64,000 nt of DNA from Giardia intestinalis (taxonomy: Eukaryota): the NCBI GenBank assembly GCA_000002435.2, contig CM018790.1. One strand, given 5' to 3'. This document shows, piece by piece, positions 37,327-53,027 of this stretch. Position numbers and translations under genes: made by a program. The notes under the pieces are model-generated. The model ran no database searches. It was given only the letters and a program-made list of their open reading frames with translations, and was not told the origin of the DNA. The stretch's first letter is position 1, and the number at the start of each line of letters is the position of its first letter.

Positions 37327-40300
37327 CAGGACTCAGTTCGCCTCTGCCAGCCAAGCACCCCAAGTCCTATTTCTTGTCGAGGGATTCACATGGGTCACGT
37401 GTGGGTCCGTCTGGACAGGCGGGGCGAGTGATTAGTGCCATCACTGGCTTCAAGCTCTCCGTTGCTCTGGGAGCTCCTTGAGACCGGCCAGGAAGGAGGC
37501 CTCCTGCCCCTCAGTGCTCTTACACCCAATGTTGACCGTCGAGCATAGCGCTTCGCTAGGTCTGTCGCCTCTGTGACTACCCTGTCGCGTCACTGTCATC
37601 GGCATGGGCAGTGAGTGGAGTATCTCCTTCAGCTCCTGGTGAGCAGGTTCTGTACCACGCAGTATGGGGGCATGCGCAGGGCCCCGAGGGACCGAGTCCA
37701 GGAGTGCAGCGCGTCCCAGCCGGAGGAAGGCCTCGACGCAGCTCCTCGGGACGGGGCACACTTGCCTGGGAGAGGCCGTCTGCTGTTGGGGCTCTCGTTA
37801 TGTCGAGCGAGGCCGCCGTGCCCATCAGCTTGTGTCTCCCTGTGCCATGCGAACACCACCCATGTGCAATCGGTGGAACGCAGTCTGCTCTGTCTCGAGG
37901 AAGGCCAGTGTCTGGGTCTCCAGGGGGCTCGGGACTGCCTTGTGGAGCGCATCATGATCGTCCCCTGATCGTGGTTGTCCTGTCTCGTTCTTGGGAAGAG
38001 GGCAGAACAAAAGTTCTTCTCCCGTCGGAGTCGCTTGGCACTTGAGTTCGAACTTTGGGTTTTGATCTTGGCCAATGCAGGGATGAGGGAGACCTGCTTC
38101 CCCAGAGCGGCGGTGGCTTGCATGGGAAGATCACTCAGATAGCAGGTGACAGCCCCACCCCGGCTAAAAAACTTGAGGCAGCCGTCGCGCCCGCCGCCCC
38201 CAGGACAGAGATTCTGCGTGCATGGCCAGCTGCCCTTGTCAGTTCGGTCTACTGGTCCGGTAGTCTGAGGACCTTCTGCGCCGCTTCTGATGTATGATGC
38301 ATCGCAACTGCTTATAGGGGTAAGCAGCATGAAAAGGCAATTGCATGTGTGGACATTGTACTATGACCGTCTCAGAGGGCCGAAGTCTCCAACTACAGAG
38401 CGCTGCACCGAGCAACACGCCCCACTGCCCTGCGCCGGTGGCTGCCTCCACCACCGTCTTCGTTGCACTTGGGCTGTGCCTGCCCAGCAGACTGAGCAGA
38501 GATTACAGAAGCTTCTCTAATAATGCACACACGCCGCATAAGGTCTGATGATGGAATGGACACCACCTGTCTGAGCTGTCTGCTATTGACGAGAGACAGC
38601 CCTTGGTTGCACTAGAGTGCTTTTGTTTAAGCATAAGGTCTTCGCACCTACTCCCCCATCAGCTATAGCGATAGCTGTATATCCAGAAGGGTCCTGCAGA
38701 GCGTTCCACCGTCTTTCAAGGTAAGGCATGGGCTCCATACCTATAGCTAAAAACAGAAATCCGTGCACCAAGTGTCACGAGTCTAGTATACTGACCGACC
38801 TGAATCGCAGTGCACTTGTCAAGGACCTGTGCACACGTTTGGATGCTCACTGCTAGTGGTAGACGGGCTTGTAAGGAAAATTGCTTCTGGTCGCGCTTGC
38901 CTTATAGTGTTTGATCCTGGGTGGCATGCCTCAGCAAAGGAAGATGCTATTTATATGCATAGAAGGCTATCCATGCACAGTGATTCCTGGAAAGCCGGTT
39001 CGCACGGAGAGGGTAGAGGCCATCAGCAAACCAGTGAGATACACCTGACGCTAGAGAGGCCAGCTACCGGCTCAGATTGCAGTGGTGACACTTGTAGTGC
39101 CCCTCTGACTTCTAAGCATGGAAACGTCACGGGGTCTGTGGGCAAACCGGACGCTCTTTTTGATTTTATACGTTTGTAGCAACGTAGTATTTATTGGGGT
39201 CTGCTTCGTCTGGAGTCGAGGAGGCTCGCTTTCTCTCCACATACAGATTAAGATCGATTGTAGGGGTATACTGTGCAGATCAGTACCAGTCAGTGTGGTC
39301 TCTGTCCACAGGTACCTCACTTGCGTCTTCCCGTGGCAGACATTCACCAACAACACCTCCGGCCTGTGTGGTGTTCTACAGTGTACCTTCACCTTCGACC
39401 AAGGGGCTGGTACACACGTTACGTAATTTAGATTGCTCATCAGTCAGGGTGGTATGGTCCGCTCTTGTTCTCCACTTGCATATCTCGTATAACCTGCTGA
39501 TAGCCTTTCCAGATTAGTATGCAGATGCTTCTATCGGTCCTGTAAGGCATGCGTCATGTAGGTAACCATTACAGGCCAGAGTCCTGTCTGCTAAGGAAAA
39601 GAACCACCAGTTTACCATGTGGACATCCGTTGTGCTCTCCAGTATCTCCTCGCCAGCCGCCATCTAGTTCTCCCTGCCGTTTGGAGCCCGTATGTATATT
39701 GTTACTGACAAGCACTTGGTTTCAATGGGCCCCTGGGACGTTAAGCACTTTACCCTGTGCAGTGGGTATGTTCAATGTGGGAGATACACAATCAGCATTG
39801 ACTTTCTCACTCATTGTTTGTGTAATTATTGTTGCTTCTTAGTCTAATTAGCAACCCAGATCATGGCCTCCAGTGTAGTGGTATTCTACCAACAGACAGC
39901 TGGCAGTGACTGTGGCACGTACTTTCATCAAGACACAGCCACCTGAGCAGGGGTATGAAATGGGTCCTTGTTATTCTACGATTCTGCTAATTCCTCAGAT
40001 AGCAGGGATCAGAGCAGCTTATTGTTAGTATTGACTATCTCCGTGTCTCCATTTATCTTCGTCGCTTGAGATACGCTTGACTCCAAAGACTCGAAAAGGT
40101 GCTATACTGTGCTCAGATCTGCGAGTCTCAATTAAGTAAGGCTACCATCTCGGTGGCTGCGCTGAGGTAGCTACACACCTTGTGGGCTCTGCAAGGTGCA
40201 TTACAGCCCAATGGAACCCTTACCTATCGAATGCAGGCCGCAATGCAGCCTCGCTGGTGCACGATTTCTTAAGATGACTGATCAATCCGCAGAGTCCACC

Positions 40301-52000: not shown

Positions 52001-53027
52001 TCCACACATGCAATTGCCTTTTCATGCTGCTTACCCCTATAAGCAGTTGCGATGCATCATACATCAGAAGCGGCGCAGAAGGTCCTCAGACTACCGGACC
52101 AGTAGACCGAACTGACAAGGGCAGCTGGCCATGCACGCAGAATCTCTGTCCTGGGGGCGGCGGGCGCGACGGCTGCCTCAAGTTTTTTAGCCGGGGTGGG
52201 GCTGTCACCTGCTATCTGAGTGATCTTCCCATGCAAGCTACCGCCGCTCTGGGGAAGCAGGTCTCCCTCATCCCTGCATTGGCCAAGATCAAAACCCAAA
52301 GTTCGAACTCAAGTGCCAAGCGACTCCGACGGGAGAAGAACTTTTGTTCTGCCCTCTTCCCAAGAACGAGACAGGACAACCACGATCAGGGGACGATCAT
52401 GATGCGCTCCACAAGGCAGTCCCGAGCCCCCTGGAGACCCAGACACTGGCCTTCCTCGAGACAGAGCAGACTGCGTTCCACCGATTGCACATGGGTGGTG
52501 TTCGCATGGCACAGGGAGACACAAGCTGATGGGTACAGCGGTCTTGCTCGACATAACGAGAGCCCCAACAGCAGACGGCCTCTCCCAGGCAAGTGTGCCC
52601 CGTCCCGAGGAGCTGCGTCGAGGCCTTCCTCCGGCTGGGACGCGCTGCACTCCTGGACTCGGTCCCTCGGGGCCCTGCGCATGCCCCCATACTGCGTGGT
52701 ACAGAACCTGCTCACCAGGAGCTGAAGGAGATACTCCACTCACTGCCCATGCCGATGACAGTGACGCGACAGGGTAGTCACAGAGGCGACAGACCTAGCG
52801 AAGCGCTATGCTCGACGGTCAACATTGGGTGTAAGAGCACTGAGGGGCAGGAGGCCTCCTTCCTGGCCGGTCTCAAGGAGCTCCCAGAGCAACGGAGAGC
52901 TTGAAGCCAGTGATGGCACTAATCACTCGCCCCGCCTGTCCAGACGGACCCACACGTGACCCATGTGAATCCCTCGACAAGAAATAGGACTTGGGGTGCT
53001 TGGCTGGCAGAGGCGGACTGATCCTAA
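46032..53027. repeat. Right arm (~7.0 kb) of the inverted repeat, reverse complement of 37327-44322 at about 99.9% identity
   Basis: See left arm. The only differences seen are a roughly 20-bp hypervariable patch (left 37806-37823 / right 52531-52548) and two single substitutions near left 38105-38125. Confidence 0.92.
46551..48437 (-). CDS. Variant-specific surface protein (VSP), copy B, convergent with copy A
   Basis: Translated protein is identical to copy A, 628/628 aa. Confidence 0.9.
   Translation of the reverse strand: MLLVVFYFVLSALAGACTVEANTRDCTENKCEMVGETEICTQCKTGGNVPIDGVCKAVAEAANKCTKSDDNPVGAGDTTCGKCVNAYFMYKGGCYLAGAAGPGTGTKMCKQAAGGKCTQAADAKNYFIPPANTDDTHDSVVWCGDEIGVTLSSTQYKGVAKCLVCDAPGGAGAATCTTCEDGYFGATCKKCHESCRTCEAAEENKCKSCTDGYFLGATNGAAGKCLKCNSKTEEGWHGVDNCAKCTSSNTQNTPATCTECVANFYLKPAAGATPSSCVTETGCGDGYFPTIVDEIKKCIACGTAANGGIDDCKKCSLKTTSAKAGIEIVCTECNTKWLSPLGDACLDSCPPGTHADSGNICPLCHSTCAECDGNAEATSCRACYPGFVLSYGSDKVRGTCIQECTGKYAENCEENMCTAVLGGSKYCSKCKAGFVPIDGVCVSTASRAVTGCTPGNGVCIACTDSYFLQSGGCYQSTVFPGNKLCTLASNGKCTACSNGQTADGQGSCPACNAICATCAAGNIDQCQTCFPGYYKSGTKCVKCSITDNGITGVENCISCAPPAGNSGPVTCYMKTDDTNDGGNDNNGGSTNKSGLSTGAIAGISVAVIVVVGGLIGFLCWWFICRGKA

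Follow-up and report, generated by a model that had tools for sequence, protein, structure and literature searches.

The 64,000-nt window analysed here is a stretch of chromosome 2 of Giardia intestinalis WB-C6, and it contains two identical genes for a variant-specific surface protein (VSP), facing each other tail to tail within a near-perfect palindrome. A repeat finder returns one inverted repeat with arms at 37333–44333 (+) and 46021–53021 (−), each of 7001 nt, separated by 1687 nt. Read inwards, the left arm opens with a 4584-nt non-coding upstream module, continues with a VSP gene, and closes with a 3′ flank of 530 nt; the right arm is its reverse complement, and the spacer between them (44334–46020) is unique and without a recognisable gene. 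The first VSP copy lies at 41917–43803 (+) and the second at 46551–48437 (−), the two open reading frames (ORFs) being convergent, 2747 nt apart, and without a single difference between them.

The encoded protein, 628 aa in each copy, matches the Pfam VSP family PF03302 with E=1.8e-91 (307 bits, the gathering cut-off being 31.4), and contains 11.5% Cys, 24 CXXC motifs, and 2 GGCY motifs (at residues 92 and 471). Its N terminus, MLLVVFYFVLSALAGA, was judged to be a signal peptide from the residues themselves and from a published table: in Table S1 of a preprint from the Lujan laboratory (10.1101/2022.03.07.483299; hereafter the preprint), the 628-aa row for this gene gives the same N terminus in the signal-peptide field. 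The C terminus, GFLCWWFICRGKA, is made up of the conserved transmembrane helix and the CRGKA tail (...CWWFICRGKA). The initiator context CAATGTT fits the PyAATGTT pattern.

Just past the stop codon lies the extended VSP poly(A) signal ACTTAGGTAGTAAAC (43805–43817 (+), with its mirror copy at 46537–46549 (−)). AGTAAA begins 8 nt past the stop, and AGTAAAC is found at 43811–43817 (+) and at 46537–46543 (−), which bears out at both copies the polyadenylation signal proposed in an earlier, sequence-only reading of this DNA; Table S6 of the preprint gives AACTTAGGTAGTAAACGCGT as the poly(A) signal for both copies. A second match to the signal, AGTGAA, is situated in the spacer at 44715–44720 (+), on the read-through path from copy 1; a transcript from copy 2 would meet the equivalent match at 45307–45312 (−). 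One AGTGAA match per strand, against ~0.8 expected from the window-wide density, is chance level, and these spacer matches carry no evidential weight in either direction.

Three Giardia intestinalis entries from WB clone C6 have exactly this protein sequence, namely KAE8301981.1, KAE8301982.1, and XP_001705557.1 (contig of 1,539,535 bp), and the locus is the catalogued tail-to-tail pair GL50803_00d11521/GL50803_0011521 (vsp126.1/126.2). The pair arrangement is already known and is tabulated in three publications. Table 2 of Xu 2020 (PMC7000408) has a row for chromosome 2 with d11521 and 11521 in the orientation -> <-, 628 aa in length and 2747 bp apart; Table 5 of Adam 2010 (PMC2996952) gives vsp126 as tail-to-tail, its ORFs 2748 nt apart and its 3′ divergence point at 530 nt; and Table S4 of the preprint lists the pair with no gene between the copies. 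The divergence of the arms measured here, 530 nt past the stop, equals that given for vsp126 in Adam 2010, in whose Table 5 the 5′ divergence is entered as '-', the full extent of the arms being untabulated for this pair. Additional file 1 of Adam 2010 equates 126.1 with GL50803_11521 (TTIPa) and 126.2 with 118786 (TTIPb), the latter 5′-incomplete, and the Sanger-era annotation likewise holds the full-length XP_001705557.1 beside a 56-aa fragment, XP_001705558.1. From the accession order (KAE8301969 < 981/982 < 983) taken together with Table 2 of Xu 2020, the left copy is probably GL50803_00d11521 and the right copy GL50803_0011521. The locus is thus far one recorded instance of a genome feature already described, the paired VSPs that Adam 2010 called 'an interesting, but cryptic observation'. 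Its use lies in being a clean test case, with a unique spacer, exact coordinates, and mapped poly(A) signals, for two questions: whether tail-to-tail VSP palindromes give rise to double-stranded RNA (dsRNA), and whether gene conversion keeps their arms alike.

Base-by-base comparison of the left arm with the right finds 6 mismatches in 7001 positions (99.91% identity). These fall at offsets 5, 476, 479, 484, 487, and 782 from the outer end, all six being confined to the outermost 783 nt while the inner 6.2 kb is 100% identical, and all six are transitions. On the left they correspond to 37338, 37809–37820, and 38115, with partners in the right arm; four are clustered within 12 nt, and two of the six abolish a CpG in the right arm. 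The sequence-only reading had described two identical 628-aa VSP genes set tail to tail in 7.0 kb arms of ~99.9% identity around a spacer of ~1.7 kb, and had held the non-coding upstream DNA to be as well preserved as the coding region. The ORF comparison and the measured values (7001 nt, 6 mismatches, 1687 nt) agree with this, the identity of the arms does run through non-coding DNA, and the limits it had set at 37327–53027 are nearly matched by BLAST, which stretches the arm match to 37328–53025; wherever it could be checked, that description of the structure is correct.

One rival reading is an assembly artefact, in the form of a chimeric or fold-back contig or a collapsed repeat. Identical pairs ended contigs in the Sanger assembly, duplicated VSPs were formerly doubted as artefacts, and short-read assemblies of sub-assemblage AII break ~650 nt from the right arm. 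However, the Sanger data of 2010 (530/2748) and the PacBio data of 2020 (2747) concur within 1 bp on the inner structure, and this agreement makes an assembly artefact very unlikely; the old annotation already has a full copy and a 56-aa piece of the second copy, the preprint re-confirmed 20 duplicated pairs, and vsp1267 was known as a pair before genome sequencing. Support for the left arm's outer 4.6 kb comes from the PacBio assembly alone; overall we regard an artefact as barely credible.

The pair belongs to a cassette family of ~12–13 members, each convergent, with ~0.5 kb of 3′ flank and a ~1.7 kb spacer that falls into one of a few similarity clusters; a signal peptide of the MLLV-FY type and, on the 5′ side, a long module of non-coding DNA are likewise common to the members. 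In Xu 2020, all 12 of the -> <- pairs of WB are spaced 2526–2813 bp apart, and the inner divergence points of the WB convergent pairs lie at 318–559 nt in Adam 2010. Table S4 of the preprint, in which the present spacer is called a 'VSP like region' by BLASTn, places it in similarity cluster *3, whose 'very similar' spacers also include those of 115830/1, 16501, and 137708/7; for 112208 and 115797 the term used of the spacers is 'identical', and the 7-kb region upstream of VSP1267 is reported to resemble that of most duplicated pairs. The other identical tail-to-tail pairs of WB, such as vsp1267 (GL50803_112208/d112208), share with the window locus, itself a listed member, the same convergent and identical ORFs 2.5–2.8 kb apart, the same abrupt inner divergence ~0.5 kb past the stop, the absence of an intervening gene, and long duplicated 5′ regions; nothing essential differs.

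Relatives of the cassette in other isolates show how unevenly its parts have been kept. The upstream module has 64–71% identity to the DNA that precedes paralogous VSPs, both in isolate P15 and in an AII-like assembly, and with the AII-like paralog the stretch 39166–41916 aligns at ~69%. This paralog has 56% aa identity to the window VSP, and its contig comprises 2756 nt of upstream sequence and the VSP, ending 555 nt past the stop, within the 3′ flank; with a coverage of 60x, against 22x for a single-copy contig (~2.7x), it looks like a collapsed arm. Identity to this paralog reaches 93–95% in the 250 nt before the ATG, as against 50–65% in ectodomain DNA. The promoter-proximal block of ~250 nt in question lies at 41660–41916 (+), with its mirror copy at 48438–48694 (−), and is partly conserved in P15 (assemblage E), where the relative has the upstream module too. 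Tail-to-tail VSPs have in common an MLL(V/I)xFYxxLS signal peptide despite only 42–81% overall identity, and the 250-nt block and the shared signal peptide together have the look of a regulatory module that the tail-to-tail VSP subfamily has conserved at its 5′ end.

On contig ACVC01000129.1 (6812–15345) of P15, a related VSP with 68% aa identity is present as a single copy at 10001–11911, where it occupies the 2117-nt centre of an inverted repeat whose arms, at 7373–9842 and 11960–14425, are 93–97% identical. These arms correspond to the same upstream module, with homology becoming weaker further out, so that the layout reads upstream -> VSP <- upstream. Such a layout could be a deletion derivative of the tail-to-tail cassette, or an invertible segment.

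The best explanation, and one that we consider probable, is that the locus belongs to an old family of palindromic VSP cassettes whose arms are homogenised by gene conversion, and that it serves as a two-copy, switchable VSP. Behind it lies the disparity between the arm-to-arm identity of 99.91% and the 50–80% identity found between paralogous cassettes outside the conserved 5′ block, a divergence put at 30–50%: arms that are near-identical within a cassette, when cassettes built alike have drifted far apart from one another, point to concerted evolution by gene conversion. That all six mismatches sit at the outer edge is consistent with this too. On this explanation, the cassette architecture would be old, and conversion between arms would keep those of each cassette near-identical; the palindrome would be a relic of the cassette's structure on which recombination can act, and would not be there to generate dsRNA, and each copy of the switchable gene would end at its own poly(A) signal.

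The sequence-only reading had left the choice between a very recent origin and gene conversion open; the spacing of 2526–2813 bp shared by the pairs, together with their similar spacers, favours the latter half of that statement over the former. A single, very recent inverted duplication in the WB/AI lineage, arising by fold-back repair or template switching and requiring no gene conversion, would nonetheless account for just 6 differences in 7 kb and for the lack of a close ortholog of the VSP in the AII or P15 assemblies, and Adam 2010 proposed that the duplications may be recent. The outer boundaries lend it something too. The right outer boundary sequence (52910–53064 (+)) has an 85%-identical third copy at 54994–55153, whereas the left arm (37327–37444) matches that copy only as far as the arm end at 37327; the left arm thus breaks off inside a repeat of which only the right side has the continuation, and this suggests a junction. 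Against a single recent event stand the 12–13 pairs of equal geometry, with clustered spacers and different VSPs encoded, since independent recent events would not recreate identical inner breakpoints; in addition, the differences sit at the outer edge instead of being evenly spread, and identical tail-to-tail pairs occur in G. muris too. We therefore hold a recent duplication alone to be unlikely. The polarity of the junction is a separate matter: as the repeat continues across the boundary on the right side only, the right arm appears to lie in its ancestral context, and the boundary comparison suggests that the left arm is the derived copy and the right arm the original. The repeat that straddles the right palindrome boundary is ~155 nt long, and its third copy sits beyond the ankyrin gene described below.

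Several points weigh against the old, homogenised cassette family preferred here. The description of the spacers as 'very similar' comes from a footnote in the preprint; polishing with multi-mapped reads may have made the arms look more perfectly identical than they are; and the finding of no ortholog above 81% identity in AII assemblies fits a young, AI-specific duplication too.

Palindromic arms that carry convergent genes raise the further possibility that the locus makes dsRNA. According to the sequence-only reading, read-through past the poly(A) signal would yield a 2 x 1.9 kb hairpin RNA, by which 11521 would be kept silent or trans-silencing of related VSPs would be seeded; on this model the RNA would be processed by Dicer. 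The geometry permits this, and an RNAi-like model of VSP control has been published; antisense VSP transcripts are general in Giardia, with 110–141 antisense transcripts per million (TPM) at 11521, transcripts overlap in 81% of tail-to-tail gene pairs genome-wide, and exact matches of 24–36 nt to other VSPs are found in the conserved 3′ region. The transcript required, however, would have to read through 2.7 kb and past two AGTRAA matches, in an organism whose 3′ UTRs (untranslated regions) have a median length of 59 nt, with alternative sites ~81 nt apart.

The expression of the gene itself argues in the same direction. Peptides of GL50803_11521 have been detected by mass spectrometry in WB and in a canine strain (as VSP-126.1), and its mRNA is consistently raised in metronidazole-resistant lines. 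In strand-specific RNA-seq (preprint Table S9, multi-mapping sheet), each copy shows 58–84 sense and 110–141 antisense TPM in clones that express other VSPs, the sense and antisense values being normalised separately and the two figures thus not directly comparable. A gene whose protein is detected and whose mRNA is present or up-regulated runs counter to the hairpin model, and the peptides, the up-regulated mRNA, and the sense TPM per copy contradict the earlier suggestion that this VSP is constitutively silenced.

Nor do the published figures support an extra source of antisense RNA in the tail-to-tail arrangement. Antisense levels are no higher in tail-to-tail pairs (11521, 11470, 112208, 115797, and 115830) than in five other VSPs, the mean of medians being 100.5 TPM for the former and 98.7 TPM for the latter (n=5 vs 5, Mann–Whitney U p=0.84), which leaves the proposal of a built-in dsRNA or antisense source unsupported. 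Antisense transcripts exceed sense transcripts in most VSPs whatever their arrangement, a further point against the hairpin model. VSP1267, likewise tail-to-tail and the surface VSP of >90% of cells in one clone, reaches 17,987 sense TPM in the expressing clone with 69 antisense TPM (a single replicate), as compared with 117–148 antisense TPM in a non-expressing clone (preprint Table S9); high expression from a palindromic pair is thus attained with no rise in antisense. Sense transcripts per copy, compared in clones expressing a different VSP, are higher in the tail-to-tail VSPs (mean of medians 37 against 10 TPM, p=0.03), in a very small sample of n=5 vs 5.

Taken with this evidence, the hairpin model is distinctly improbable. 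A more restrained version may be framed, in which occasional transcription through the spacer would produce long hairpin RNAs that act as primary triggers, independent of an RNA-dependent RNA polymerase, for one-VSP control by Dicer and Argonaute, with small RNAs acting in trans on the whole cassette subfamily by virtue of its conserved 3′ ends and shared 5′/signal-peptide module; we rate this as a long shot, although the published bulk RNA-seq figures may leave room for a rare and rapidly diced transcript. If true, the idea would fill a gap in the RNAi-like account of how Giardia controls antigenic variation, that of the primary trigger. It may also be original: the terms dsRNA, double-stranded, and hairpin are absent from both Adam 2010 and the preprint.

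The features of the locus can be set beside those of better-known systems. In hairpin-RNA and endo-siRNA loci—the Drosophila hpRNA genes, plant inverted-repeat loci, and the inverted-repeat siRNA loci of Trypanosoma brucei—inverted repeats are the source of small RNAs. The present locus resembles them in that its inverted repeat, were it transcribed as one unit, could form long dsRNA; unlike them, its arms are complete genes with their own promoter and a strong poly(A) signal, its antisense is not elevated, and its gene is expressed. The human Y chromosome carries ampliconic palindromes, P1–P8, ranging from 9 kb to 1.45 Mb, with arms at least 99.9% identical, a unique spacer, and genes within the arms, and maintained by gene conversion. 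Here, too, the identity of the arms lies far above the divergence of related copies, the genes are inside the arms, and the spacer is unique; the differences are the 7 kb scale, the status of conversion as inferred, and a cargo that is a variant surface antigen. Closer at hand, identical VSP pairs occur in G. muris as well (Xu 2020, Microb Genom), five of them tail-to-tail and two head-to-head; the DNA between their copies carries NEK, ankyrin, or zinc-finger genes or pseudogenes, whereas the spacer here holds nothing recognisable.

Searches of the non-coding DNA gave little. Across the 4.58 kb of upstream sequence and the spacer, 51 stop-to-stop frames yielded no Pfam match below E=0.02, no Rfam match was obtained at E<=0.1, and a tRNA scan was without result. 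When the ORFs of the spacer and of the upstream DNA were matched exactly against a protein collection, only one, a singleton of 233 aa, was present, and the longest reading frame of the spacer returned, against protein representatives, a single low-complexity match that is uninformative on homology. The preprint reports CENSOR matches to relics of transposable elements for such regions; relics of pseudogenes or retroelements were considered here as well but not found, as tblastn with VSP, high cysteine membrane protein, ankyrin, and neighbouring proteins found nothing below E=0.04 in the non-coding parts. Short internal repeats within the spacer occur at chance level only. In composition, the spacer is 62% GC with 14% T, and its CpG observed/expected ratio of 0.37, compared with 0.72 window-wide and accompanied by TpG and CpA ratios of ~1.55, is the most extreme of the regions tested.

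To the right of the palindrome lies the ankyrin gene (53833–54591). AII-type short-read assemblies are 97.7% identical to the window on this side, and their contigs end at positions equivalent to 53654–53710 (two assemblies) and 53426 (a third), short of the arm by ~650 nt. Outside AI, the VSPs found reach at most 81% identity to 11521, and the locus hence differs between sub-assemblages.

To the left, the palindrome starts 250 nt upstream of the start of a gene on the minus strand (31243–37083 (−)) that encodes a 1946-aa WD40 protein, with a first β-propeller of the WDR19/IFT140 type; this protein is likely an intraflagellar-transport protein. Further out, at 10430–11689 (+), is a Cys-rich gene with a CRGKA end and AGTAAAT 21 nt past its stop, corresponding to the high cysteine membrane protein KAE8301969.1 (419 aa); it stands without the upstream module, but over its final 128 nt it has 77% identity to the 3′ end of the VSP.

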